NCBI GenBank assembly: GCA_965221595.1
Contig: OZ244900.1
Coordinates: 3,576,982 to 3,640,981, forward strand
Reading direction: 5' to 3'
Length of the DNA: 64,000 bases
Source: Vicinamibacterales bacterium
GTDB taxonomy: Bacteria > Acidobacteriota > Vicinamibacteria > Vicinamibacterales > UBA8438
Each line of letters opens with the position of its first letter. Position 1 is the first letter of the stretch. Of the stretch, positions 10,836-55,461 are shown one piece after another. The notes below the pieces were generated by a model. It was given only the letters and a program-made list of their open reading frames with translations, had not been told where the DNA came from and searched no databases. A program made the position numbers and the translations under genes.

Positions 10836-12662
10836 CTACGGCAACGCGAACGCCAGCACTTCGTTGGTCGAGACCACCGCGATGTACTGCTTCCCGTTGA
10901 CCTGATACGTCAGCGGGCTGGCGCGAATCGGGCGGTTGTGCTGGTAGCGGAACAACTGCTCGCCCGTGCGGGCATCGAAGGCATAGAACTCGCCCACGTC
11001 GGTACCCTGCAACACCAGGTCGCCCGCCGTAGCCATGCTGCCGCTGCTGCCGATGGCCGAGTTGGTGGGCATCACCTGCTGCCAGACGAGCTCTCCGCTC
11101 ACCGGTTCATAGGCCGAAACCGTGAACATCGGGACCATGTCGTCGCGGAAGGGTCCGTCCGCGATGGAATCCAAGTGGCCGTCGCTCTGGCCGACCACCA
11201 GCGAGTCACCGACCGGGTTCACCGTAATGGTAATCCCGCCGTCCTTGCCGGTGACGTACAGCAGGCCGGTGCGCGGACTGAAGGAAGGCGGCCCCCAGCT
11301 CGAGCCGCCGTGCGCCACGATATAGCGCTCGGTGAGCGAGTACGGCGTGTAGAGCTGCCGCGCCCGGCGCTGCGCCTCGGGGTCGCTCAGGATCGGGAAG
11401 GTCGCACAGAATGGCGTCATGGGGACGCCGCGGGCATTGTACGGAATGGGCTGGGTCGGCCACACTTCCTCGCCCGGCACATCCGTCTCGGTCGGCACCG
11501 CGGTCTCCACCATCGGATTGAGCGGCTCGCCCGTCTCCCGGTCCCAGAGGTACAGCAGGCAGTTCTTGCCGGCCGCTGCAATCCCCTTCACTGTCCGCCC
11601 GTCGTGCTCCGCGTCGAACAGCAGCGGCCCGGTGACGTGGTCCCAGTCCCACAGATCGTGGTGGATGGCCTGGTAGTACCACGCCAGCCGCCCGGTCTCG
11701 AGCTCCAGCGCGATGGTCGCGTTCGTGAAGAGGTTCATCCCCGGTCGCGCCGATCCGTCGTAATCGGGCGAAGGATTGCCTGAGTTGACGTAGACCAGCC
11801 CCAGCTCGGGATCGATCGCCGGCGGCGTCCACACGCCGCCACCGACCTTCTGCCCGGCGCCCCAGGAGTCCTTCGCGATCTCCCAGCCGTCGTCGCGCGG
11901 CCCCTGCGGCACGGTGTTGAACACCCACTTGATGATCCCGGTAGCCGCGTCGGCGGCAATCACGAGCCCGCCGGGAATGTGGTTCTCCGACAGCGCCACA
12001 CCGGCGTACAGTGTGCCCTCGTGGTAGACCGGCGGCGTCGTCAGGCGGTAGCCGAGGCCGTAGGCGTCGACGCCCGGTGGGTAGTCATCGGGGTACTTGA
12101 ACTCCAGCGCCTCGCTGATGATCTCCAGTCGCCCCCCGTCGCCGAATGACTCCGCCAACTCGCCCGACTGCACGTCGACGGCGTACATCGACGCGCCGCC
12201 GAAGGCGTAGAGCCGCCCGTCGCCGTACGTCGGACCCCGGCCGCGCGCCTCGAGCGTGTCGTTCATCCGCATCGTCCAGACGGTCTCGCCCGTCACGGCG
12301 TTCACCGCGAAGACGGTGGCCCCCGAGTTCACGTACATCACACCGTCGACCACCAGCGGCGTCACCTGCGTGATGCTGTTGGCCGCCCCGGCCTCGAAGG
12401 CCCAGGCCTGCTCGAGATTGCCCACGTTTCCGGTGTTGATCTCGTCGAGCTCGGCGTAGCGGCTGCCCTGGACGTCGAGGTTGTGCAGCGCCCAGTTCGA
12501 CTGCCCGTCGCCCGCAATCACCGGCGGCTGCGCCTGATGCGTGATCGTGGCCGGATCCTGGGCGCCCGCCGGCGCGGCCAGCAGCGCCGCGATGCTCGCG
12601 GCGATCACGCGCGCCACCGCGTGTGTTCCTGCGTGTCTGATGGATCTCCGATTCGATCGCAT
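10836..12662 (-). CDS. PQQ-dependent dehydrogenase (quinoprotein beta-propeller), secreted
   Basis: Part of ORF 10836..12890. The start is ATG 12662, with a GGGAGAA SD 5 nt upstream. The signal is MRSNRRSIRHAGTHAVARVIAASIAALLAAPAGAQD. It has W-rich propeller repeats and HHDLWDWD around the catalytic Asp, but no vicinal Cys-Cys. Confidence 0.85.
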   Translation of the reverse strand: MRSNRRSIRHAGTHAVARVIAASIAALLAAPAGAQDPATITHQAQPPVIAGDGQSNWALHNLDVQGSRYAELDEINTGNVGNLEQAWAFEAGAANSITQVTPLVVDGVMYVNSGATVFAVNAVTGETVWTMRMNDTLEARGRGPTYGDGRLYAFGGASMYAVDVQSGELAESFGDGGRLEIISEALEFKYPDDYPPGVDAYGLGYRLTTPPVYHEGTLYAGVALSENHIPGGLVIAADAATGIIKWVFNTVPQGPRDDGWEIAKDSWGAGQKVGGGVWTPPAIDPELGLVYVNSGNPSPDYDGSARPGMNLFTNATIALELETGRLAWYYQAIHHDLWDWDHVTGPLLFDAEHDGRTVKGIAAAGKNCLLYLWDRETGEPLNPMVETAVPTETDVPGEEVWPTQPIPYNARGVPMTPFCATFPILSDPEAQRRARQLYTPYSLTERYIVAHGGSSWGPPSFSPRTGLLYVTGKDGGITITVNPVGDSLVVGQSDGHLDSIADGPFRDDMVPMFTVSAYEPVSGELVWQQVMPTNSAIGSSGSMATAGDLVLQGTDVGEFYAFDARTGEQLFRYQHNRPIRASPLTYQVNGKQYIAVVSTNEVLAFALP

Positions 12663-25712: not shown

Positions 25713-25829
25713 ATGTCGGTATGATGCGCACGAGACTACGCAGTGCAACCGCGCGGACTCCTGCAGGGTTCGCCGGGCGTCAGGCGGAGCCGCGCGGCGA
25801 AGATTGGCGGTTCTGGCTGTGAGGTGGCC

Positions 25830-26615
25830 ATGTTCAGGCTCTTGGCGGTGACTGTGCTCGTCGCGGCGACGGTGGCAGCCGCCGGCGCGCAGGAAGCCGA
25901 GAATCCGTTCACCGCCGGCCCCGACCGGCGTATGGGCGAAACCAGCTTCCGAGTGCACTGCACGTTGTGCCATGGCTACGACGCAAGGGGCGGCGGGGAA
26001 ACCAACGGCCCCGACCTCACGACCGGGCGGTTCCGGCGTACCAGCACCCTGGCGGGACTCTTCGACGTGATCCGCAACGGCGTCCCGGGCACCGCCATGC
26101 TCGGAATCAACCCTGACGTGGCGGATCGCGTAGTCTGGCAGATCATCACCTACCTCGACTCGCTGACCCCGAACCCCACGGATGCGGAGCTGCCGGGCGA
26201 CGTGGGCGCCGGACGCGCCCTGTTCGCCGGCAAGGGCAACTGCGCGACCTGTCACATGGTGGACGGCACCGGCGGGCGGCTGGGCCCGGATCTTTCCCGG
26301 ATCGGGGAGCGGCGTGATCCCGACGAGCTGCGGGCCGACCTGCTGGATCCGGGCGCGGAGGTAGCGCCGCGCTGGTGGACGATGACCGTCACGCGCCCTG
26401 ACGGCTCGGTCGTCGAAGGGCTCAGAATGAGCGAGGACACCTTCACGCTGCGCCTGATCGACGCCGACGAGCAGTTGTGGTCGTTCTCCAAAGGTGCGCT
26501 GCAGTCGTTCGAACGCGTCCGCACGTCCTCGATGCCGGGCGCCGGCGGCACGCTCACGGACGCCGAGGTGGACGACCTGATCGCGTACCTGTTCTCGCTG
26601 CGGAAGGAGAGCTGA
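25830..26615 (+). CDS. di-heme c-type cytochrome
   Basis: Part of ORF 25743..26615. ATG 25830 has a GAGGTGG SD and is followed by a signal peptide. Two CxxCH motifs are present (CTLCHG and CATCHM). Confidence 0.85.
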   Translation: MFRLLAVTVLVAATVAAAGAQEAENPFTAGPDRRMGETSFRVHCTLCHGYDARGGGETNGPDLTTGRFRRTSTLAGLFDVIRNGVPGTAMLGINPDVADRVVWQIITYLDSLTPNPTDAELPGDVGAGRALFAGKGNCATCHMVDGTGGRLGPDLSRIGERRDPDELRADLLDPGAEVAPRWWTMTVTRPDGSVVEGLRMSEDTFTLRLIDADEQLWSFSKGALQSFERVRTSSMPGAGGTLTDAEVDDLIAYLFSLRKES

Positions 26616-26618
26616 CTC

Positions 26619-28244
26619 ATGAAGCGTTTGGCGATGGTCGCGGTGCTGGCCGGCTGCGCGCAGGCGGCCAGCGGCCAGGAGCCTGCGTCCGGCGCGGCAC
26701 CGTCGTTCTCGCCCGTGACCTGGGAGCGGCTGCTCGACGCGGCGGACGAACCCCACAACTGGCTGATGTACTCCGGCACGTTCAGCAGCCAGCGCTTCAG
26801 CCGACTCGACCAGATAAACGCAGGCAACGCAGGCAATCTCAAGTTGAAGTGGGCCTATCAGATTCCCGTGATCGACCGGGCGGAGACCACCCCGCTCGTC
26901 GTCGACGGCATCATGTTCGTCACGGAGGCGCCCAGCAATCTCGCGGCGATCGATGCGGCCACGGGTGGCGTGTACTGGCGCTACGAGCACGAGCTCCCCG
27001 ACGATCTCCGCATCTGCTGCGGCCGCAACAACCGCGGCGTGGCCGTGCTCGGCAATACGCTGTTCATGAGCACGCTGGACGCACACCTGGTGGCGATTGA
27101 CGCGCGCAGCGGCAACCTCGTCTGGAACACCGAAGTGGCGGAGCATTCGCGGGGCTACAGCAAGACGGCGGCGCCGCTCATCGTGAAGGACAGGGTGGTG
27201 ACCGGCATCGCGGGCGGCGAGTTCGGCATCCGCGGATTCCTCGACTCGTACGACGCCGAGTCCGGTGCACGCGAGTGGCGCACCTACACGATTCCCGGCC
27301 CGGACCATCCGGATAACCGGAGCTGGTCCGGCGATTCCTGGCGTACCGGCGGGTCGCCGACCTGGATCACCGGCTCGTACGATCCGGAGCTCGACCTCGT
27401 CTATTGGGGCACCGGCAACCCCGGACCCGACTACAACGGCGAGATGCGGCTGGGCGACAACCTGTACTCCGACTCAGTGCTCGCCCTCGACGGCGACACC
27501 GGCGAGATGTCCTGGTATTTCCAGTTCACGCCCCACGACGTCCACGACTGGGACGCGATCCAGATCCCGATCCTCGCCGACATCGAGTTCGACGGCCGGC
27601 CGCGCAAGGCCATGCTGTGGGCCAACCGCAACGCCTTCTTCTACGTGCTCGACCGCACGACGGGCGAGTTCCTGCTCGGCGAGCCGTTCGCCCGGCAGAC
27701 CTGGGCCGAGCGGATCGACGACCAGGGCCGGCCGGTGCGGCTGCCCGACACGTTTCCGACGGAGGACGGCACGGTGGTCTCGCCTTCCGTCCTGGGCGGC
27801 ACCAACTGGTGGTCCCCCGCGTACAGCCCCCGCACCGGGCTCTTCTACGTGAACGCCTTCGACGGCGAGGCGGAGTACTTCGTTCGCGAGGACGACTACC
27901 GGGCGGGCGTCCGCTTCATCGGGGGCGGGCAGCAGCAGGTATCGGCGATCGACAACTACGTCAACGCGATTCGGGCCATCGACCCGGCCACCGGCGAGCG
28001 GCGCTGGGAGTTCCGCATCACGCCGCAGTCGCGGGCCGGCGTCCTCGCCACGGCGGGCGATGTAGTCTTCAGCGGCGGCGTCGACGGCTACTTCTTCGCC
28101 CTCGACGCCGAGACCGGCGAGGAGCTGTGGCACATCCAGTTGGGCGCGCTCGTGCAGGCCGCGCCCATCACCTACGCCGTGAACGGGCGGCAGCAGGTCA
28201 CTATTGCCGCGGGCAACGTGGTGTACACGTTCGGTCTGGACTGA
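26619..28244 (+). CDS. PQQ-dependent alcohol dehydrogenase (methanol/ethanol family)
   Basis: 541 aa with a signal peptide. It has the vicinal disulfide CCG (DLRICCGRNN), the motif GGT.W, and HDVHDWD around the catalytic Asp. It starts 4 nt after the cytochrome c stop. Confidence 0.9.
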   Translation: MKRLAMVAVLAGCAQAASGQEPASGAAPSFSPVTWERLLDAADEPHNWLMYSGTFSSQRFSRLDQINAGNAGNLKLKWAYQIPVIDRAETTPLVVDGIMFVTEAPSNLAAIDAATGGVYWRYEHELPDDLRICCGRNNRGVAVLGNTLFMSTLDAHLVAIDARSGNLVWNTEVAEHSRGYSKTAAPLIVKDRVVTGIAGGEFGIRGFLDSYDAESGAREWRTYTIPGPDHPDNRSWSGDSWRTGGSPTWITGSYDPELDLVYWGTGNPGPDYNGEMRLGDNLYSDSVLALDGDTGEMSWYFQFTPHDVHDWDAIQIPILADIEFDGRPRKAMLWANRNAFFYVLDRTTGEFLLGEPFARQTWAERIDDQGRPVRLPDTFPTEDGTVVSPSVLGGTNWWSPAYSPRTGLFYVNAFDGEAEYFVREDDYRAGVRFIGGGQQQVSAIDNYVNAIRAIDPATGERRWEFRITPQSRAGVLATAGDVVFSGGVDGYFFALDAETGEELWHIQLGALVQAAPITYAVNGRQQVTIAAGNVVYTFGLD

Positions 28245-34564: not shown

Positions 34565-35227
<663 letters not shown>

Positions 35228-35297
35228 GGCCGCAGGTGATTGATGGTAACCTGGTACATCACCATCAGGATAGCAGGCTGAAGCCGGGGAGGCAGTC

Positions 35298-36326
35298 GTG
35301 GGCCGACGATTCACCGCGAACATCCCGTCACAACGGATCACGCCGCCCGAGGTCTTCTTCAATCGGCGCAAGTTCCTGTCGGCCCTGGGACTGGGCGTGC
35401 TGGCGACGCCCTTCGCCGCGTGCGCCGCGGGAGCTTCCCAGGCCCGCGCGCAGTCGTCACTTCTGGAGGTGCCGCTGAGCCGCCCGGACGTCTTCCCGAC
35501 GCAGCGCAACGCCGCCTTCGCCGCGCCGCCGGGGGCCATCGGCCGGCAGGCCATGACGCCGCGCGACGTGGCCGCGTCCCACAACAACTTCTACGAATTC
35601 CTCTCCGGCCGCGGCGGTCCGGTCTGGCAGTTCTGCGGCGACTTCGAAGTGGAGCCGTGGCAGATCGAGATCACCGGCGAGTGCAACAACCCGCTGACGC
35701 TCGATCTGGACGACCTGTTCGCCTTCGACCACGAGGAACGTGTCTACCACTTCCGTTGCGTGGAACGCTGGGCGATGAACGTGCCCTGGTCCGGCTTCCC
35801 GCTGCGCAAGCTGATCGAGCAGGCCGACCCGAACGCCAACGCCCGCTACGTCCGCTTCGAGACCGCCGTGAAGGAAGAGCAGATGCCCGGGGTGAGCGGT
35901 TCGCCCTGGTACCCGTGGCCGTATCACGAGGCGTTGCGCCTCGACGAGGCGATGAACGATCTGGCCCTGGTGGTCACCGGGGTGTACGGCGAGCCGCTGC
36001 TCCGCCAGCACGGCGCGCCGGTGCGCATCATCGTGCCCTGGAAGTACGGCTACAAGAGTCCGAAGTCCATCGCGCGGATCGAGTTCGTGCGAGACGAGCC
36101 GTCCATCTTCTGGCAGGTCCAGCCCCACGAGTACGGCTTCATCTCGAACGTCAACCCGAACATCCCGCACCCCCGCTGGCCGCAGAACATCTCCTACTGG
36201 CTCGACACGGAGGAGACGTTCGCCACGCCCATCTACAACGGGTACGACGAGTACGTCGCGGGTCTCTACCCGGACGAGCCGCGCACGCCGCAGCGACCCC
36301 TCCGACCAGGTCAGGCGGCACGCTGA
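35298..36326 (+). CDS. msrP: protein-methionine-sulfoxide reductase catalytic subunit MsrP (YedY-type molybdoenzyme), Tat signal
   Basis: 342 aa. GTG start with a GGGGAGG SD. Features are the Tat signal [21 protein letters not shown], then NNFYEF and the molybdopterin oxidoreductase fold. Confidence 0.9.
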
Positions 36327-36342
36327 CGGCGGAGCCGGGGCC

Positions 36343-37863
36343 GTGCTGCTGCGTCCCGACGACGAGTACAACCGGCAGCTCGTCGCCAACGTCCACCCGC
36401 CCGGGTGGCAGAACCCGCAGCCGGCGGACCGCTACAACCTGGTGGTGATCGGCGCCGGCACCGCCGGCCTGGTCACCGCGGCCGTGGCTGCCGGGCTGGG
36501 CGCCCGCGTGGCCCTGGTCGAACGCCACCTGATGGGGGGCGACTGCCTCAACGTCGGCTGCGTGCCGTCGAAGGGCCTCGTCGGCGCCGCTCGCGTCTGG
36601 GCGGCCGTCGCCCGCGGCCCCGAGTTCGGGTTGCACGGCCCGGGCCCGCTGCAGCGCGACTTCGGTGCGGTCATGGCCCGCATGCGGCGACTGCGCGCCG
36701 GGCTGAGCGGCATCGATTCGGCGCAGCGCTTCACCGGCCTCGGCGTGGACGTCTTCATCGGTGCCGGCCGCTTCACGGGCCCGGACACCGTCGAGGCCGA
36801 CGGCGTTCCGCTGCGCTTCAGTCGAGCCGCCGTCTGCACGGGCGCACGCGCGGCCGTGCCGCCCATCCCGGGCCTCGCCGAGGCAGGCTGCCTGACCAAC
36901 GAGACGCTGTTCTCGCTGACCGAGCGTCCGGCGCGGCTGGCCGTCATCGGCGCCGGACCCATAGGCTGCGAGATGGCCCAGTCGTTCGCACGCTTCGGCA
37001 CCGAGGTCACGCTGCTCGAGCAGTTCGCCCGCATCCTGCCGCGCGAGGACCCCGACGCCGCGGCCATCGTGCAGCGGCGCCTGGCGACGGACGGCGTGCG
37101 GCTGGCGCTCGACGCCCGCATCACGGAGGTCGCGCGCCGCGGGCAGGACAGGCTGGTGCGCTACGCCGCCGGGGGCACCGACCACGAGCTGGCGGTCGAC
37201 GAAGTACTCGTCGGCGCCGGCCGGGCGCCCAACGTCGAGGGCCTCGGGCTGGAGGCGGCCGGCGTGGCGTACGACGCGGCAGGAGTGAAAGTCGATGCCC
37301 ACCTCCGCACGAGCAATCCCCGGGTCTACGCCGCCGGCGACATCTGTTTCCCCTTCAAGTTCACGCACACCGCCGACGCGCTGGCGCAAATCCTGATCCG
37401 GAACGCCCTGTTCCCGCACCCCTTCGGTCTCGGCCGCGCCTCGACGGACTCGCTCATCATCCCCTGGTGCACCTACACGGAGCCTGAGATCGCCCACGTC
37501 GGCCTGTCCGAGGCCGACGCCAGGGCCAAGGGCGGCGCCGTGGAGACCTTCACGCAGCCCCTCAGCGAGGTCGACCGGGCGGTCCTCGACGGCGAGGGCG
37601 AGGGCTTCGTGCGGGTCCACCTGAAGCCGGGCAGCGACCGCATGCTGGGTGCCACGATCGTCGCGAGCCACGCCGGCGACCTGATCAGCGAGATCACCGT
37701 GGCGATGCAGGCCGGGGCCGGTCTCGGCGTCATCGGAAACACGATCCATCCGTACCCCACGCAGGCGGACGCACTCCGCAAGGTGGCGAACCGGTTGCGC
37801 CGGGCGCGGTTCTCGGCCGGTCAGAAGTCGCTGCTCAGCCGCTGGTTCGCCTGGACGCGCTGA
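36343..37863 (+). CDS. FAD-dependent pyridine nucleotide-disulfide oxidoreductase (MerA/dihydrolipoamide-dehydrogenase-like)
   Basis: 506 aa. Motifs are YNLVVIGAGTAG (FAD binding), redox disulfide GGDCLNVGCVPSK, and an HPYP dimerisation-domain motif. Confidence 0.85.
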   Translation: MLLRPDDEYNRQLVANVHPPGWQNPQPADRYNLVVIGAGTAGLVTAAVAAGLGARVALVERHLMGGDCLNVGCVPSKGLVGAARVWAAVARGPEFGLHGPGPLQRDFGAVMARMRRLRAGLSGIDSAQRFTGLGVDVFIGAGRFTGPDTVEADGVPLRFSRAAVCTGARAAVPPIPGLAEAGCLTNETLFSLTERPARLAVIGAGPIGCEMAQSFARFGTEVTLLEQFARILPREDPDAAAIVQRRLATDGVRLALDARITEVARRGQDRLVRYAAGGTDHELAVDEVLVGAGRAPNVEGLGLEAAGVAYDAAGVKVDAHLRTSNPRVYAAGDICFPFKFTHTADALAQILIRNALFPHPFGLGRASTDSLIIPWCTYTEPEIAHVGLSEADARAKGGAVETFTQPLSEVDRAVLDGEGEGFVRVHLKPGSDRMLGATIVASHAGDLISEITVAMQAGAGLGVIGNTIHPYPTQADALRKVANRLRRARFSAGQKSLLSRWFAWTR

Positions 37864-37918
37864 GGAGAGCGCGTCGGTGGTCGGCGCGACCGTCGGACGG
37901 CTCGCCGGCTCGAGGTCG

Positions 37919-38710
37919 TCACACGCCCAGCAGGCGCGGCAGGGCGGCCACCGAGTCGATCACCGCGCTGGGGCGCACGCCCGCGGCCGCGACATCCCCG
38001 GGCCGGAACTTGCCGGTGCGGACGAGAATGCCGCGGGCGCCGGCGGCCAAGGCACCCCCGACGTCCGAGACGACATCGTCGCCGACGAGCGCCACATCGG
38101 CGAGCGGCAGGCGCAGGCCGGCGGCCGCGGTCTCCAGGAACGCGGCGCTCGGCTTCCCGACGGTTACGGCGGGCCGGCCCGCGGCGTACTCTAGGGCCGC
38201 GACGAACGGTCCGGCGTCGAGCACGAGCCCGTCAGCGGCCCGCCAGTAGCGGTTCTTCTGAAGGGCGAGCAGCGTCGCCCGGTCGCCGAGCTGGTGGAAG
38301 GCACGGTTCAGCCGCTCGAAGGTCCAGGCCGGCCCGAGATCGCCGACGACGACCGCTTCCGGACTGGACTCGTCGATGGTGAAGCGGGCGAACTCGCCCG
38401 CGGACGCGGGGGCGACGTGCAGCGCCACGGTGCGCACGGCGTGCGCTGCGAGCCACGCTGCAGCGGCGAGGGGGGCGGTGAACAGCTCGTCGGCAGCGAC
38501 CGGCAGGCCCAGGCTCCCCAGGCGCTCGACCAGGGCCGCACGCGGCTGGCGGGTCGTGTTCGTGACGTAGCGCAGCGCGAGGCCCGCAGCACGCAGACGG
38601 GCGACGGCCTCCGCTGCGCCCGGGATGGGGCGGTCCGCCTCGTAGAGCGTGCCGTCGAGGTCGAGCAGCAGGCCGCGCACGCCGCGCAGCGCCGCGGACT
38701 GCGGGGTCAC
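37919..38710 (-). CDS. HAD-IIA family hydrolase
   Basis: 263 aa with LLDLDGTLY (motif I) and [11 protein letters not shown] (motif IV). The GTG start overlaps the stop of the macro-domain gene. Confidence 0.85.
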
Positions 38711-39315
38711 TTGTGCCCCGCGAGGGCGGCTTCGTAGGCCGCGCGGACGCGCGGCTCGAAGCAGACGAACCAGACCTGCTCTAGGGTCGGGGCCGACTCG
38801 ACCGCCCGGCGCGTCTCGCCGACGGCGATGGCCGCGGCGCGCTCAGGGGGATAACCGTAGACCCCGCAACTGATGGCCGCGAACGCCAGCGTCCGCAGGC
38901 TGTGCTCGCGCGCCAAGCCGAGCGCGGAGCGATAGCAGGCAGCCAGCAGCCCGGCCTCGCCGTGCGTCCCGCCGCGCCATACCGGTCCGACGGCGTGGAT
39001 CACGAATCGCGCAGGCAGCCGGTAGCCACGGGTCAGCCGCGCCTCACCGGTCGGGCAGCCCCCGAGCGTGCGGCAGGCCGCCAGCAGCCCGGGACCGGCC
39101 GCCCGGTGTATCGCGCCGTCCACGCCGCCGCCCCCGAGCAGCGTCGTGTTCGCGGCGTTCACGATGGCATCGACGGCAAGCGTCGTGATGTCGGCCGTGG
39201 AGATCCGCAGCTGCGCGCCGCCACCGGCTGGTCCGTCGCTCCCGGATACCGCCGGTGAACCGCTCGCGGACGCGGCGGGAGCGGGACTTGGGATAGGATC
39301 GGGCTCGCCATGCAT
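38707..39315 (-). CDS. macro-domain protein (O-acetyl-ADP-ribose deacetylase, YmdB-like)
   Basis: C-terminal 202 aa of ORF 38707..40731 with ATG at 39315. The sequence [34 protein letters not shown] is typical. It has a low-complexity 35-aa N-terminal extension. Confidence 0.85.
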
Positions 39316-39552
39316 ATCGCAATCACCTACTGCACCCGCTGAAAGTACTTGCCCAGGGCTGCCAGTCTGGCAGCCGCGATCAAGGGCGCCGTCGACTGCG
39401 AGCCCGAGCTCATCGAGGGCACCAACGGCGTCTTCGACGTCGTCGCGGACGGCGGCCTGGTGTTCTCCAAGCACCAGGAGGGCCGCTTCCCCGAGACGGA
39501 CGAGATCCTGGATGCCCTGCGCGCGTTGGCAGGCGCCGGCACCGGCTCCTGA
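39310..39552 (+). CDS. SelW/Rdx-family selenoprotein (CxxU) with in-frame TGA at 39340-39342
   Basis: The ORF track shows only 39349..39552. The same frame upstream reads ATG(39310) [21 protein letters not shown]..., giving [25 protein letters not shown]...[25 protein letters not shown] hairpin lies 15 nt after the TGA. Confidence 0.75.
39357..39375 (+). other. bacterial SECIS-like hairpin
   Basis: GGCTGCCA-gtc-TGGCAGCC is a perfect 8-bp stem with G/U in the apical loop. It starts 15 nt downstream of the TGA. Confidence 0.6.
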
Positions 39553-39605
39553 CCTGCCTGCGGCGGCGTCTGCGGACTTGCGGCCGGTCGGCGCGCAGCC
39601 GCGGG

Positions 39606-41522
39606 TCAGGCCTGCGGCGCCGCCGGCCGCGAGCCGGCGTAGCGGCGGACGGCCGCGACGATGTGCGCCGCCGAGATGCCGTAGCGCTCCAGCAACTCGC
39701 GGGGCTTGCCGCTGCGGGGCACGTCGCGCACAGCCAAGCGGCATACCGCGATGTCCTGCGCCGCGACCGCCTCGCTGACGGCGTCGCCGAGACCGCCGGC
39801 CGCGTAGTGGTCCTCCACGGTGATGAGCCGCCGCCCGGTGCGCAGGCCGGCGCGGACCAGGGTGGCCGCGTCGATCGGCTGCACCGAGTATGCATCGATC
39901 ACGCCGATGCTGATCCCCGCCTGCCGCAACTGCCGGTAGGCCGCGCGCGCCTCGAACACGGTGACGCCCGCAGCGACGACAGTGGCCACGTCGTCCGCGC
40001 TCTCGTGCAGGATCTGCGAGCCGCCGATGTCGAAACGCTCCGCGTTCGTGTAGATGACCTCCGTCTTGGGACGGCTCGTGCGCAGGTACACCATGCCCTG
40101 GTGGGCGGCGGCGGCCGCCACCAGGCGCTCGCAGCTCACCGCGTCGCACGGGTACAGCACGGCGCAGCCCGGCACGCTGCGCATCATCGCCAGGTCCTCG
40201 AGCGCCATCTGCGACGGGCCGTCCTCGCCTATCGACACGCCCGCGTGCGAGCCCGCGAACTTGATGTTCGCCTTCTCGCCGCCTATGCCGGCCATGCGGA
40301 TGAAGTCCGACGCGCGCGTCAGGAAGCAGGCGAAGGTCGACGGGAACGGAATCGCGCCGCGGCTGGCCAGACCGGCCGCGGCACCGGTCATCACCTGTTC
40401 GGCGATGTGCGTCTCGTAGAAGCGGTCGCCGTGTGCCTGCTCGAACTTCCCGCTGAAGGTCGAGTTGGCCACATCGGCGTCGAGCGCCACCACCCGCGGG
40501 TCGGCGGCCCCCAGCGCCGCCAGCGCCGTGCCGTAGGCCTCGCGCGTGGCCACCAGTGCGCCCGGCTCGTAGCGCGGCTCCGGCAGCGCCGGCCCGGCTG
40601 GCGGCGGCGGCGTTCGACGCACCGGCGGCGGCGGGATGGGCGGGCGGTCCGCACCGGCAACCAGTTGCCCCTCCAGCTCGGCGAGCGCGCGATCCAGCTC
40701 GGCGCCGCCGGGGATGGCCTTGCCGTGCCACCCGTCGCGGCCCTCCATCAGCGTGACGCCCTTGCCCTTCAGCGTGCGGGCCAGGATGACCGTGGGGCGT
40801 CCGGCCGTGCGGCGAGCCTCCGCCAGGGCATCCAGCAGGGCGCCGTGATCGTGTCCGTCAACCACCAGGGCGTGCCACCCGAAGGCCCGCCAGCGCCGCG
40901 CGTAGGCCTCCATGTCGTGGCCCCACTGGGTCGGCCGGCTCTGGCCGAAGCAGTTGACGTCGGTAATCACGCACAGGTTGTCGAGCCCGAACTTCTCCCC
41001 CGCCTGCGCCGCCTCCCAGACCGATCCCTCGGCCGACTCGCCGTCGCCGATCAGCACGTAGGTGCGATAATCCGAACCGACGCGGCGGGCGTTGAGGGCA
41101 ATGCCGATCGCCGCGCAGATGCCCTGCCCGAGCGAGCCGGTCGCCACGTCGACGAACGGCAGCCGCGGCGTGGGATGCCCCTCCAGGTCGCAGTCGAGCT
41201 TGCGGAGCGAGCGCAGCGCCTCGTGCGTCAGGAAGCCGGCTTCCGCCCATGCGGCGTACAGCAGCGGCGCCGCGTGGCCCTTCGACAACACGAAGCGGTC
41301 GTTGTCGTCGTGCTGTGGATTCTGCGGGTCGAATCGCATCTCGGCGAAGAACAGGGTGGCGACGATGTCGGCGGCCGAACAGCAGCTCGATGGATGGCCG
41401 CTGCCGGCTTCGGATGTAGCCCGGACGGACTCGAGGCGGAGCCGGGCGGCGATGGTCTGCAGCGCGGGAACGAGTGACGACCTGTCGGGGGACACGACAC
41501 CTCCGGTAGCGGAGTCTAGCAC
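39606..41522 (-). CDS. tkt: transketolase
   Basis: 638 aa with SGHPSS, the TPP-binding motif [13 protein letters not shown], and the C-terminal pyrimidine-binding/transketolase-C domains. An alternative GTG start at 41495 has a GGAGGTG SD. Confidence 0.9.
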
Positions 41523-41541
41523 GCGGGCGCCTCGGCCCCGG

Positions 41542-43026
41542 CTACTCCTGAAGCTCCAGCGCCGCCAGCGCCCACGGGGCTGCGTCCACGCCCCGCCCGC
41601 GGGCCTCGGGCAGCAGCGACTCGAGCGTCGCCGCGGCGCGCGCCCGGAAATCGTCCGCGCCAGTCAGGCGACCCAGACGCGCCAGCACGCGCACCGCCGT
41701 GCAGTTGACGGCAAACGGCCGGAGCGGCTCCCGCAGCAGACCGACATCGTCGTCGGCAACCACCCGGTCGACGAAGCCGCCGCGCGGCGCATCCCACAGC
41801 TCGCGGAGGCAGAAGCGCATGAGCTCCTGCGCCAGGTCGAGGTACACGTCGCGCCCGGTGGCGCCGTACAAGTCGAGCAGCGCGTCGCTCACCGCCACCT
41901 GGTCGGCGAGCAGCCCACGCGCGATCTCACCATCGCCGACGGCGTGCGCGATGCCGCCGCCCCGCTCGTACGTCTCCCCGGCCACGCGCTCGAGCGAGTC
42001 GACCGCGAACTCGATCAGCGACGAATCGCCGAACACCTCGGCGGCGCGCAGCAACGCCGCGGCCGTGCGGGCGGTCCCGGCCGCGTACACGGAGCGGTCG
42101 ACCCGCGGACCCCGCAGCCGACCCCGCGCGGCGATCGAGGCTGCGTAGTAGTCGTCGTCGGCGTACTGGCTGGCGAAGAACCCCCCGGCAGCGCGGTCCG
42201 CCAGCGTCCGGACGACGTACCGGAGGAGGTGCGCAGCCCGCTCCCGGTAGCGCGGCTCGCCGAGCACCCGCCAGCCCTCGAGCAGGAGATCGAGCACGCC
42301 GGCATTGACATCCAGCAGCTTCTCCACGTGCGGAGCCGTCCAGTCGCGCGCTGCGCAGTAGCGGAAGACGCCGCCGTCCACGTCGTCGTACAGGCCGCTC
42401 CAGCCGATGGCATCGAGCGTTCGCGACGCGGCCTCGCGAAGCGGCCTGCCGGCAGCCCCCGACCGCCGCAGCGCGAACCGCACCGCCGACGCGTGCACCT
42501 GCTTCGGCGCGGTGCCGAAGCCCCCGTGCCGCGGATCGAACCGCTCCAGGAGATGCTGCTCGAGCCAGCGCTCGAAGTCCGCAGGGCTGTCGCGCGATTC
42601 TGGCGCGCAATCGGCCGGCGGCTTGCGCGGCGAGCCGACCTCGCCGTGCCGGCGTGCGAACGCCGCGGCCACGCGCTCGAGCAGCGTCGCCATCCGGGCG
42701 GCGTCGACGTAGGTCTCGCCACCCAGCACGCGGCCCGCCGGCGTGAGGAACACCGTCGTCGGCCAGCCGCCCAGGTGGTAGCGCTCGCTGATGTCGGGGC
42801 GCCGGTCGGCGTCGACCCGCACGGGCACGAATGCACGCTCGACCAGGCGGCACACACCGGGATCCTGGTACGTCGTGCGGCCCATCTCGGCACTCCACCG
42901 GCACCAGGCAGCGCCGATGTGCAGCAGAACGGGCGCCTGCTCGGCCCGGGCGCGGGCGAACGCGGCGGCGCTCCAGGGCAGCCAGGCCACCGGGCCGCAG
43001 GCGCCGGCAGCGGCGGTGGGCTCCAC
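41542..43026 (-). CDS. thioredoxin-fold DUF255 / YyaL-like protein with an (alpha/alpha)6 epimerase-like domain
   Basis: 494 aa. W.PW..AAF..A.....PVLL.IGAAWC.W...M....F.D..V..L....FV.V.VD...RPD...Y......GGWPTTVFLTP is typical of DUF255, although the usual CHWCH is replaced by CRWS. Confidence 0.75.
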   Translation of the reverse strand: MEPTAAAGACGPVAWLPWSAAAFARARAEQAPVLLHIGAAWCRWSAEMGRTTYQDPGVCRLVERAFVPVRVDADRRPDISERYHLGGWPTTVFLTPAGRVLGGETYVDAARMATLLERVAAAFARRHGEVGSPRKPPADCAPESRDSPADFERWLEQHLLERFDPRHGGFGTAPKQVHASAVRFALRRSGAAGRPLREAASRTLDAIGWSGLYDDVDGGVFRYCAARDWTAPHVEKLLDVNAGVLDLLLEGWRVLGEPRYRERAAHLLRYVVRTLADRAAGGFFASQYADDDYYAASIAARGRLRGPRVDRSVYAAGTARTAAALLRAAEVFGDSSLIEFAVDSLERVAGETYERGGGIAHAVGDGEIARGLLADQVAVSDALLDLYGATGRDVYLDLAQELMRFCLRELWDAPRGGFVDRVVADDDVGLLREPLRPFAVNCTAVRVLARLGRLTGADDFRARAAATLESLLPEARGRGVDAAPWALAALELQE

Positions 43027-43060
43027 GACGGCCGATTATAATCGGCGGCAAGCGCGGAGC

Positions 43061-44077
43061 ATGGCACACCGGATCACTCTCATTCCAGGCGACGGCATCG
43101 GGCCGGAAGTAACCGCTGCGGTCGTGCAGTTGCTGGGCCGGTCCGGGTTGGACATCGAGTGGGACCGCGAGCTGGCGGGCGCGGGCGCGGTCGACCGCCA
43201 CGGGGAACCGCTGCCCCGGCGCGTCCTGGACTCGATCCTTCGCAACCGGGTCGCGCTCAAGGGCCCGGTCGGCACCCCGATCGGCGCCGGCTTCCCGAGC
43301 GTCAACGTCGAGATCCGCCGCGCGCTCGAACTCTACGCGAACCTGCGGCCGGTGGCTTCGCTGCCGGGCCTGACCACCCGCTTCGACCACGTCGACCTGG
43401 TCGTCATCCGCGAGAACACCGAGGATCTGTACTCCGGCCTCGAGCACGAGGTCGTGCCCGGGGTCGTCGAGTCGCTGAAGGTCATCACCGCCCAGGCGTC
43501 CGAGCGCATCGCCCGCTTCGCGTTCTCGTACGCCCAGGGCCGGGGCCGCCGCCAGGTGACCGCCGTGCACAAGGCCAACATCATGAAGCTGGGCGACGGG
43601 CTGTTCCTCGATTCGGTCCGCAAGGTGGCGCAGGACCACCAGGACATCGAGTACGCCGAGCGCATCGTCGACGCCACCTGCATGCAGCTCGTGCTGGACC
43701 CGGGGCAGTTCGACGTCCTGCTGCTGCCGAACCTGTACGGCGACATCGTGTCCGACCTGTGCGCGGGACTGGTAGGGGGCCTCGGGCTCGTGCCGTCGGC
43801 CAACCTCGGCGAAGACCTCGCCGTCTTCGAGGCGGTGCACGGCACCGCGCCCGACCTCGCCGGGCAGGGCCTGGCGAACCCGACGGCGCTGCTGCAGTCG
43901 GCCCTGCTGATGCTGCGCTACCTGAACGAGGACGAGACGGCCGCCCGCCTCTTCACGGCGCTGGAGCGGGTGCTAGCCGATGGCCGGGTGCGGACCCCCG
44001 ACCTGGGCGGCACCGCCACCACGCGCGAGTTCACCGATGCCATCGCGCAGCAGATGGAAGTCAGTCTGCCTCTGTGA
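43061..44077 (+). CDS. NAD-dependent isocitrate/homoisocitrate dehydrogenase family protein
   Basis: Part of ORF 42791..44077. The sequence MAHRITLIPGDGIGPEV...LVVIRENTEDLYSG...NLYGDIVSDL...HGTAPD is typical. A perfect TATAAT lies at 43037-42. Confidence 0.9.
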   Translation: MAHRITLIPGDGIGPEVTAAVVQLLGRSGLDIEWDRELAGAGAVDRHGEPLPRRVLDSILRNRVALKGPVGTPIGAGFPSVNVEIRRALELYANLRPVASLPGLTTRFDHVDLVVIRENTEDLYSGLEHEVVPGVVESLKVITAQASERIARFAFSYAQGRGRRQVTAVHKANIMKLGDGLFLDSVRKVAQDHQDIEYAERIVDATCMQLVLDPGQFDVLLLPNLYGDIVSDLCAGLVGGLGLVPSANLGEDLAVFEAVHGTAPDLAGQGLANPTALLQSALLMLRYLNEDETAARLFTALERVLADGRVRTPDLGGTATTREFTDAIAQQMEVSLPL

Positions 44078-44528
44078 TGGCCGCCTGGATATCGACGTCG
44101 ATGCAGCCCCGCACGGTGTTGTAGGCCGGGCAGCCAGCCGGGTGCCGGGCCACGGCCCGCTCGGCCGCCGCGCGCTTGTCGGGCGGCACCGCCAGCTGGT
44201 AGCGCACGCGCATGCGCGTGACGCGCAGTACCTTGTCGATCGCCTCGACGTCGCCTTCGACCGTGGCGGAAATGCGGTCGGGCGTGGCCGGTATGTCGCG
44301 CACCTCCAGTGCGCGTGCAAGGGTGCCGAGCAGTCAGGCACCCACGGCCGCGACTAGGTGATCGAGCGTCGCGGGGACTTCCTCGTCCGGCTCCACGCCG
44401 TAGAACTTCTTGATGCCGCCATGGACACCGAAGCGGATTGGCGTGTCGAAATTCTCGAGAAACGCCTCCCGGATGGGGCCCTTGACGCGCTCGATGCGCA
44501 GGCGACTCGTGTGCACCAGATCTCCCAT
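44061..44528 (-). CDS. OsmC/Ohr-family peroxiredoxin-like selenoprotein, in-frame TGA at 44336-44334
   Basis: ORFs 44334..44528 and 44061..44303 are in the same frame, separated only by TGA plus 10 sense codons. The joined product reads ...PATLDHLVAAVGA-U-LLGTLARALEV...ARHPAGCPAYNTV. U aligns with the first conserved Cys of OsmC/Ohr, and the second Cys (GCP) is retained. A GGGAGG SD precedes ATG 44528. Confidence 0.7.
44297..44315 (-). other. bacterial SECIS-like hairpin
   Basis: Minus-strand CGCGCAC-uggag-GUGCGCG is a 7-bp stem with a GG-containing loop. It starts 18 nt downstream of the UGA. Confidence 0.55.
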
Positions 44529-53874: not shown

Positions 53875-54345
53875 CTACGGCGCCCGGAACGTGTCCGGCA
53901 GGATCGACTGGAACTGCAGGCCCCATCTGCCGTCCTGCTGCGTGATGATGAACAGCGACGGAACGGTGCGGTAGGGCGTGCCGTCCGGGCGGCGGCGGCT
54001 GAACACCACCTCGAAGTGCACCTTGTCGGCGGCCACCTGCAGGGGCTCGGCGCGATCGATGGTGCTGTGGTCCCAACCTTCCGTCTGCCGGAGACGCGCG
54101 AAGTCGGTCACGACGTCGGCGGGACCTTCCCGCACGGTGACCTGCCCGTTGCGACCCAGGCTGAGCCGCGGGTAGTTGCAGGCTGCGGCGATGGCCTCGT
54201 TGTCCTCGGCGTTCCAGGCGCGGAAGTACTCGTCGAGCGCCGCCCGTGCGTCTTCCAGCGGGTCCTGTGCCGCTGCCGACACCGGCACCGCCATGGCGAC
54301 GGCGACGGCGACGGCGAGCCCCGCGACCAACCTGAGCTTGCCCAT
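53875..54345 (-). CDS. secreted SnoaL-like/DUF4440 (NTF2-fold) protein
   Basis: 156 aa with a signal peptide. LDEYFRAWNAEDNEAI is typical of the SnoaL-like N-terminal helix. Confidence 0.7.
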   Translation of the reverse strand: MGKLRLVAGLAVAVAVAMAVPVSAAAQDPLEDARAALDEYFRAWNAEDNEAIAAACNYPRLSLGRNGQVTVREGPADVVTDFARLRQTEGWDHSTIDRAEPLQVAADKVHFEVVFSRRRPDGTPYRTVPSLFIITQQDGRWGLQFQSILPDTFRAP

Positions 54346-54363
54346 GGGATGGGTCCTCTCCTG

Positions 54364-55326
54364 TCAGAAGATGGCGACTGGTACCACGGTCGATCCGGTG
54401 GCGCCCTGGAGCTTGAGCGGCTGCACGACGAAGGCGAACTCGTGCACCCCGGCCGCAGCCAGCTCGTCCAGGCGCATGCGCTCGACGAGGTGGATGCCGT
54501 GGACGACGAGCATCATCTGGTGAATCGGCAGCGAGACATCCGGGTCGGGGTTGGGCGAGACCTCGATCGGCTGGTTGTCCGCGCCGAGCAGCATGGGATC
54601 GTGTTCCACGAGCCACTCGGCCGCCGCGACGCCGATACCCGGGTTCGTCGCCATGAAGCGCTCGGCGTCCGTATCCCAGAGCACGCCCCAGCCAGTGTGG
54701 ATCAGCACGGCGTCGCCGGGCTCGAGGGCCACGCCCTGCCGGTCGAGCGCCTGCTGCAGGTCGTCGACCGTGATCTCGTAGCGGTCGGGCAGCATGTCGA
54801 CGCCCTTGAGCGCCGCCACGTCGATCAGCACGCCGCGGGTCATGAGCGTGCCGACGTTCTCGACGCCCAGTCGCGTGAAGCCGTCGCGAGTCATGACCTC
54901 GTTCTGGTCGAAGCAGTTGTAGAGGCTGTCGCCGATGGTCTGGTGGGCGAAGCCGTCGAACTGCGTGCCCACCTGGCCCATCTCGGCGACGACGAGCTCC
55001 TCGTTCGAGGCGCGGCGGTTCGTGCCGGCGGGCGGGCCGGTCGGCTTCATGTAGAGGTCGAAGTGGCGGTTGCCGAGGGGTATCGCCCCGTGCAGCACCT
55101 GCCCGAGCTCGACCACCCGTCCGGTGCGGATCAGGCCCGCCGCTCGCAGCACGGTTTCGGGCCCCATGTGGTTGGCGGCACCCCGCTCGTCGCCCGCCCC
55201 CCACTTGCTGGGGCAGCGCTCGTCGGGCGGCGGCGGCGACCACGACTGCGCCGCGGCGGGTGCGCCGACCGCGAAGGTGAGCGCGGCCGAGGCGAGGGTG
55301 ACGGCGGCCGAGGTAGTGAATCGCAT
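54364..55326 (-). CDS. cyclase-family protein (kynurenine formamidase-like)
   Basis: Part of ORF 54364..55386. ATG 55326 has a GGGAGGA SD and is followed by a signal peptide. Cyclase-family features include GTQFDGFAH and LIHTGWG. Confidence 0.8.
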   Translation of the reverse strand: MRFTTSAAVTLASAALTFAVGAPAAAQSWSPPPPDERCPSKWGAGDERGAANHMGPETVLRAAGLIRTGRVVELGQVLHGAIPLGNRHFDLYMKPTGPPAGTNRRASNEELVVAEMGQVGTQFDGFAHQTIGDSLYNCFDQNEVMTRDGFTRLGVENVGTLMTRGVLIDVAALKGVDMLPDRYEITVDDLQQALDRQGVALEPGDAVLIHTGWGVLWDTDAERFMATNPGIGVAAAEWLVEHDPMLLGADNQPIEVSPNPDPDVSLPIHQMMLVVHGIHLVERMRLDELAAAGVHEFAFVVQPLKLQGATGSTVVPVAIF

Positions 55327-55355
55327 GCCTTCCTCCCTGAATGGTCGGGCCCTGG

Positions 55356-55422
55356 CTGGCAGCCCGTGGCAATAGTCCCCGCCCATCGCGGTGCGACGCG
55401 GGGTTTCACCAAGGGCTGCTAG
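55356..55422 (+). repeat. short copy D of the dispersed repeat (both ends retained, about 95-nt centre missing)
   Basis: ctggcagcccgtggcaatagtccccgc-ccat-cgcggtgcgacgcggggtttcaccaagggctgctag. Confidence 0.7.
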
Positions 55423-55461
55423 AGTCTAAACTACCCGGCCATTCGCAGGGGCGGGCGGCGT

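Follow-up and report, generated by a model that had tools for sequence, protein, structure and literature searches.

The window analysed here, a stretch of 64,000 nucleotides of contig OZ244900.1 from a bacterium of the order Vicinamibacterales (Acidobacteriota), very probably carries at positions 39310-39552 (+) a single gene for an 80-residue thioredoxin-fold protein of the SelW-like (Rdx) family, in which an in-frame UGA codon is read as selenocysteine (Sec) by means of a selenocysteine insertion sequence (SECIS) immediately downstream. The gene starts with ATG at 39310, 11 nt behind a motif read from the sequence as resembling a Shine-Dalgarno (SD) site (AGGA, 39295-39298, (+)), and ends with a stop codon at 39550-39552, the last residues of the read-through product being GTGS. 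Nine codons after the ATG (HIAITYCTR) an in-frame TGA occupies 39340-39342, and the same frame then continues as KY-L-PRAASL, where the L is the TTG at 39349-39351. The codons TGC ACC CGC TGA (39331-39342, (+)) form a putative CxxU redox motif, running from Cys8 (TGC, 39331-39333) to Sec11, which aligns with the CxxC of a natural Cys homologue (P0003) and of the structures 2FA8 and 2OKA. At this locus the program-made list of open reading frames (ORFs) contains only a 67-aa ORF starting at TTG 39349, and the public protein of the gene (P0001) has the same truncated form, also of 67 aa. A first-pass annotation made from the sequence had proposed the hidden selenoprotein gene, and when the sequence was read again its coordinates for the ATG, the TGA, the TTG, the stop codon and the hairpin were all correct; its spacing for the hairpin was also right, as 14 nt separate the TGA from the first stem base and the stem begins at the 15th nt.

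We propose the following mechanism. During translation the UGA at 39340-39342 would be read as Sec, giving a Cys8-x-x-Sec11 redox centre. The hairpin that the mRNA forms 14 nt further on (39357-39375), with G-U-C in its apical loop, would act as a bacterial SECIS and recruit SelB-GTP-Sec-tRNA(Sec) to the approaching ribosome, with Sec being inserted instead of termination taking place. The product would be a small oxidoreductase of the thiol/selenol type, alternating between a reduced and a selenenylsulfide form. Automatic annotation would have broken off at the UGA and resumed at a chance TTG, which in this proposal really encodes Leu14, leaving the 67-aa fragment in the public record. The binding of SelB, the actual insertion of Sec and the redox activity of the product are steps that we infer from comparisons between sequences.

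Conservation of the UGA codon and of the reading frame around it

Relatives of the gene were sought in one genome per species, taken from the GTDB representatives; 315 relatives were found, and the best 80 were analysed together with six metagenome loci, giving 86 loci. As one of the two search patterns required Cys, the sample is not biased toward TGA. The codon equivalent to 39340 is TGA in 79 of the 80 species-representative loci (best 80 of 315) and encodes Cys in none of them, and in all six metagenome loci the motif M-x-[IV]-[SA]-I-T-Y-C-x-x-TGA lies in frame 5' of the called start. The closest relatives among these 80 are Vicinamibacterales metagenome-assembled genomes (MAGs), with 86-92% identity over the matched residues, and the gene also occurs in Planctomycetota, Burkholderiales/Betaproteobacteria, Desulfobacteraceae, Krumholzibacteriia, Verrucomicrobiota, Spirochaetaceae and Gammaproteobacteria. 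Homologues with Cys in the UGA column are P0003 (CVPC) and the Rdx proteins of the PDB (CxxC). A protein search returned 28 relatives, mostly 45-67 aa long, a length typical of truncated gene calls.

This distribution bears directly on the suggestion that the gene is a pseudogene in which a Cys codon (TGC/TGT) has recently mutated to TGA, or that the TGA is a sequencing error. The change from TGC to TGA involves a single base, and in one relative (L040) a deletion of three codons has removed the motif; a TGA held by nearly every species examined, across at least seven lineages, with frames intact on both sides and no Cys at the site, is not what such an event would leave behind. Cross-species conservation thus effectively refutes this suggestion, to which we assign next to no probability. 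The copy in L040, a Vicinamibacterales representative (~6001-6219), has an in-frame deletion (ITYCT-HLPRAS) that removes R-U-K-Y, so that it has neither the Sec codon nor an intact CxxU while the rest is open; it may be a decaying or re-purposed copy.

The orthologues also speak to the simplest reading of the locus, namely that the TGA is a true stop, that the real gene is the 67-aa ORF from TTG 39349, encoding an Rdx-like protein that has no redox motif, and that the ten upstream codons are an untranslated leader. Such a gene would match both the ORF list and the public annotation, and its truncated protein still lies above the Pfam Rdx cutoff, with 40.5 bits. However, among the 83 distinct orthologous sequences on which starts and upstream codons were counted, the codon equivalent to 39349 is TTG in only three, being otherwise CTG, CTC, GGA, GAA and others, and 58 have no in-frame ATG, GTG or TTG within 15 codons after the TGA. 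Conversely, 79 of the 83 have an ATG or GTG at -30, and 72 have an SD-like motif within -20 to -5 of that start. In the ten codons before the TGA the majority-base fraction is 0.78, 0.84 and 0.60 at codon positions 1, 2 and 3, against 0.38 in the 30 nt 5' of the start, and third-position wobble is visible. This pattern indicates that the ten upstream codons evolve as coding sequence, and a protein begun at the TTG would have neither the beta1 strand nor the active-site motif of the fold. We therefore regard a true stop as extremely improbable, and the TTG start appears to be an accident of annotation. The first-pass annotation had held that standard gene callers truncate the gene, and had named as grounds for abandoning its proposal orthologues that begin at the equivalent of 39349 and have no CxxC/CxxU N-terminus; the starts counted here, the near-universal TGA and the short public proteins bear out the truncation and are the opposite of those grounds. 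The comparisons demonstrate both the conservation of the UGA and coding constraint on either side of it.

Public entries may misrepresent the site in another way. The public metagenome protein P0005 has W at the Sec site although its DNA (L006, 263-265) has TGA, and it was apparently translated with genetic code 4. Such Trp-bearing entries disguise selenoproteins as CxxW or GGW variants.

The downstream hairpin and probable selenocysteine decoding

The hairpin, GGCTGCCA-GTC-TGGCAGCC, lies at 39357-39375 (+), with an 8-bp stem (39357-39364/39368-39375) and an apical loop GUC (39365-39367). Counted from the UGA, the stem takes up +15 to +22 and +26 to +33 and the loop, G-U-C/U, +23 to +25. Its assignment as a putative SECIS draws on conservation, covariation and codon bias, which we followed in a gapless alignment, in codon register, of the 48 nt from the TGA onwards in 73 distinct sequences. 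In the 8-bp stem (columns 18-25/29-36) 87.5% of cells are paired, as opposed to 21.6-48.1% in controls with the 3' arm shifted by 1-3 columns. Four stem pairs vary on both sides, with 20 such cells where 3.8 are expected, and the covariation score of 0.157 (0.089 in shuffled alignments) was reached by none of 500 shuffles. For instance, pair 21:33 is C-G in 60 sequences, U-A in six, A-U in two and G-C in one, and pair 18:36 is G-C in 47 and A-U in seven. The loop reads G-U-[C/U]; its G never varies and its U hardly ever does.

The codons that form these bases are unusual ones. Where the loop G-U is provided by a Ser codon, this codon is AGT in 58 of 58 cases and never AGC or TCN, while AGT makes up 3.2% of the Ser codons in neighbouring genes; all 12 cases with Gly as the loop residue use GGT. 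In the clade of the window, the U-A at 21:33 arises from the synonymous Ala codons GCT and GCA, each accounting for ~5% of the Ala codons in three neighbouring genes. Because AGT and GGT are fixed, and because the rare GCT and GCA pair with each other, selection evidently acts on the RNA of the hairpin and not on the protein alone. As an illustration of how covariation at synonymous sites maintains a bacterial SECIS, the set appears to be a clean one. Conservation of the stem in orthologues that carry the TGA was the point on which the first-pass annotation had staked its reading of the hairpin as a SECIS; the conservation and the covariation of the hairpin are both demonstrated by this alignment, and that reading is strengthened.

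In the rule used by bSECISearch, the loop lies 16-37 nt after the UGA, a range into which the loop at +23 to +25 falls. The prototype of SelB-binding hairpins is the SECIS of E. coli fdhF, known from work of the Böck laboratory and from NMR work, with the sequence ...GCA-GGUC-UGC... and the loop bases G23-U24. The element in the window (...CCA-GUC-UGG...) resembles it in being a coding-region hairpin shortly after the UGA, with a loop that presents G-U. It differs from the fdhF element in that its loop bases, G26-U27, are one codon further from the UGA, in that its loop has three nucleotides, and in that its perfect stem has no bulged U, though 40 of the 73 orthologues have a 1x1 mismatch in mid-stem. 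Both the position after the UGA and the small G-containing loop agree with the published description of the bacterial SECIS, a stem-loop that follows the UGA immediately and whose small apical loop contains a G (PMC1088965); the eukaryotic SECIS has a different structure and is located in the 3' untranslated region (PMC1088965). The primary sequence of the element, GCCnCCA-GUY-UGGCGGC, hardly differs between distant lineages, among them Acidobacteriota, Planctomycetota, Burkholderiales, Desulfobacteraceae, Krumholzibacteriia, Verrucomicrobiota and Spirochaetaceae.

Several observations weigh against a selenoprotein gene with a functional SECIS. As a single sequence, the hairpin has a folding energy of z = -0.01 relative to shuffles, and in this window (70% GC) a perfect 8-bp hairpin starts 10-25 nt downstream of ~0.9% of positions; six of the 1182 TGA triplets in the window have one starting 8-23 nt after them. 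The hairpin alone is unremarkable, and the case therefore rests on the comparative evidence. It also sits in conserved coding sequence, and the protein accounts for part of its conservation. The central pair 22:32, which is G-C in the window, is the one that is mismatched (U·C or A·C) in the 40 orthologues mentioned above, and because of this RNAalifold, run on the 73-sequence alignment, gave a 3-bp alternative and not the 8-bp stem; the pairing of the stem was therefore counted directly on the named structure. Rfam 15 gave no match at gathering thresholds in the whole window and only chance-level matches (E >= 5) in 39250-39650, a result that says little because no bacterial SECIS model is present even among these weak matches. 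Finally, ARAGORN found no tRNA, and so no tRNA-Sec, in the 64-kb window, and tblastn with E. coli queries found no selA, selB or selD there. A search for Sec machinery in the 86 loci (~1 Mb flanks) returned only one SelD, in locus L069. This SelD homologue, at 10997-12040 (-) of a Planctomycetales MAG, shares 39% identity with E. coli SelD across 351 aa and lies ~5 kb from the SelW-like gene of that locus.

With no Sec machinery seen in the window, the UGA might also be read through as a residue other than Sec, for example as Cys by a tRNA(Sec)-like tRNA(Cys) acting via SelB or by a suppressor tRNA, the result being a CxxC protein. In some bacteria tRNA(Sec)-like Cys tRNAs and unusual suppressor-type tRNAs have been described, as have allo-tRNAs in Acidobacteria (PMC5389517), but the selC* tRNA(Cys) genes of that work come from other phyla. 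Among the ORFs of the window with high GC at third codon positions (GC3), TGA is the most frequent ordinary stop, and the genetic code has therefore not been reassigned. In addition, the position of the hairpin and its small loop containing G are as in SelB-dependent SECIS elements, and the family is a documented user of Sec whose Cys forms are far fewer than its Sec forms (PMC2398784). Readthrough with a residue other than Sec consequently seems to us very unlikely, and we retain the reading of the UGA as Sec.

A second candidate gene in the window is relevant to this question. Its high-GC3 ORFs include three pairs that share a frame and are joined by a single TGA. Two of these pairs, 25725/26616 (25725-28244, (+)) and 53875/54364 (53875-55425, (-)), were rejected as interrupted genes since in each the downstream ORF opens, shortly past the TGA, with a Met and a signal peptide of its own. 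The third pair, at 44061-44528 (-), makes up an OsmC-like gene of 155 aa and is a second candidate selenoprotein gene; it reads ...DHLVAAVGA-TGA-LLGTLARAL...HPAGCPAYN..., with the TGA (44336-44334) at codon 65. The Pfam family OsmC (PF02566) matches residues 54-147, across the TGA, with 42.2 bits (cutoff 27.5), and an 8-bp hairpin, CGCGCACU-GGA-GGUGCGCG (44315-44297), starts 18 nt past the TGA. Among its homologues, P0030, P0046 and P0058 have the active-site Cys at the UGA site, P0029 and P0031 have W, which is likely a TGA read under code 4, and others exist as separate N- and C-terminal fragments divided at this very codon. In independent metagenome contigs (L087-L091) neither the TGA nor the hairpin has been lost, with one pair changed from G·U to A-U. 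OsmC-like proteins are a published selenoprotein family (PMC1088965, PMC2398784); against the curated model NF041052 (OsmC_like_Se) the gene scores 25.2, with a cutoff of 95, placing it outside that curated subfamily, and it may represent a distinct one. Because two genes of selenoprotein type lie within 5 kb of each other, each with a conserved UGA and a hairpin, this genome very likely decodes Sec. The slight doubt that we keep about the SelW-like gene comes from the fact that the Sec machinery and the protein themselves were not seen.

Family, fold and known relatives

The first-pass annotation had placed the product in the SelW/Rdx family, and the profile comparisons confirm this placement. 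Over its full length, with U entered as C, the product matches Pfam Rdx (PF10262) with 66.9 bits at residues 3-71 of 80 (cutoff 22.6), whereas the match of the 67-aa fragment covers the profile from position 14 only; without the upstream part, the first 13 positions of the profile stay unmatched. The NCBIfam model TIGR02174 (CXXU_selWTH) gives 50.4 bits against a cutoff of 34.2. The score against the equivalog NF041051 (SelTWH_Campy), 79.6 bits, is below the cutoff of 88, and the protein therefore belongs to a different subfamily from the Campylobacter-type equivalog within the same superfamily. Family membership is demonstrated by these scores, and the best sequence matches in the PDB point the same way, being the SelW-related proteins 2FA8, 2OKA, 2OJL, 3DEX, 2OBK and 2P0G together with human MIEN1. 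In these alignments YCTR-U-KYL falls over YCTQCNWL or YCTQCQWL of the SelW-related proteins.

A structure was modelled for P0003, a natural full-length Cys homologue (77 aa, 64% identical, CVPC). The AlphaFold2 (AF2) model, with a predicted local distance difference test (pLDDT) score of 94.7, has beta1 at residues 3-8, CxxC at 8-11, alpha1 at 14-28, three further strands and a C-terminal helix, so that the homologue is predicted to adopt the thioredoxin-like beta-alpha-beta-beta-beta-alpha fold of the Rdx family. The position of CxxC between beta1 and alpha1 in this model, and the aligned CxxC/CxxU in the PDB matches, uphold the claim that the upstream codons restore a beta1-CxxU-alpha1 element. 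Foldseek superposed the model on SelW-related structures with template modelling (TM) scores of 0.85-0.90 and root-mean-square deviations of 1.0-1.7 Å (2FA8, TM 0.89), and MIEN1, mouse SelW and thioredoxins ranked after the bacterial SelW-related structures. Judged by sequence and by this model, the gene agrees with the family at every point that was tested, and falls short only of the narrower Campylobacter-type equivalog cutoff.

Comparison with known systems sets the gene firmly among bacterial SelW-like selenoproteins, from which it shows no essential difference. Those described under Pfam Rdx (PF10262, formerly PF05169) and TIGR02174, and in the selenoproteomes of the Sargasso Sea and of GOS (Global Ocean Sampling), belong to the same hidden Markov model (HMM) family, have CxxU and are ~75-80 aa long; they likewise have the SECIS directly after the UGA and few Cys homologues among close relatives (PMC1088965, PMC2398784, PMC1794560). 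SelW-like CxxU proteins are a recognised bacterial selenoprotein family with a SECIS that has a G in its small apical loop, have very few Cys homologues in organisms that use Sec, and are still unclear in function (PMC1088965, PMC2398784, PMC1794560). They are also the most abundant known prokaryotic selenoprotein family and are well known from metagenomes (PMC2398784, PMC1088965). The Cys-containing Rdx structures (2FA8, which is Atu0228, 2OKA, 2OJL, 2OBK, 2P0G and 3DEX) share the fold of the P0003 model, with CxxC over CxxU, but have Cys where the gene in the window has UGA/Sec, are ~25-30% identical to its product and exceed the latter in length by ~25 residues. Mammalian selenoprotein W (2NPB) and MIEN1 (2LJK) have the thioredoxin-like Rdx fold with CxxU or CxxC after beta1, as in the protein of the window, and match the P0003 model less closely (TM 0.66-0.79).

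Genomic neighbourhood, a possible partner and the meaning of the gene

The gene lies among others of a redox character. Upstream of it are a molybdopterin oxidoreductase (35274-36326, (+)), a pyridine-nucleotide-disulfide oxidoreductase of 506 aa that contains flavin adenine dinucleotide (FAD) (36343-37863, (+); NCBIfam NF004991, 768.8 bits) and a divergent MsrA gene (34565-35590). In the interval from the reductase to the Rdx gene, the minus strand encodes a HAD-IIA hydrolase and an O-acetyl-ADP-ribose deacetylase of the macro-domain type; downstream of the Rdx gene, it carries a transketolase, a DsbH-like thioredoxin and the OsmC-like gene. This neighbourhood, from MsrA to OsmC-like(U) (34565-44528 in the window; loci L002-L052), is conserved in Acidobacteriota-like loci.

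Of 49 Acidobacteriota-like loci (the window included), 36 have the NF004991 reductase upstream, on the strand of the Rdx gene, and in about a dozen the two are directly adjacent. It is conceivable, though we consider it rather unlikely, that this flavoprotein serves the SelW-like protein as its dedicated NAD(P)H-dependent reductase, the two forming a pair similar to thioredoxin reductase and thioredoxin that feeds enzymes repairing oxidative damage. None of the 37 loci from other phyla has the NF004991 reductase/MsrA neighbourhood, and the linkage to the reductase is therefore inseparable from inherited synteny. If true, the pairing would assign a role to a bacterial family that has had no known function ever since it was discovered.

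The main value of the present result is a correction of annotation, as the public proteins of this gene and of most of its orthologues, in Vicinamibacterales and in other MAGs, are fragments of 45-67 aa without an active site. The gene itself is an ordinary member of the well-known SelW-like/Rdx selenoprotein family, of which the UGA has caused the redox-active N-terminus to be cut off in annotation. Among the full texts searched there was no paper on the use of Sec in Vicinamibacterales (Acidobacteriota). With ~48 species representatives of this abundant soil order in the sample (best 80 of 315), the use of Sec appears to be widespread within it. The result brings no new mechanism and leaves the knowledge of selenoproteins unchanged; what it provides is an annotation fix and the extension of a known trait to an abundant soil lineage.

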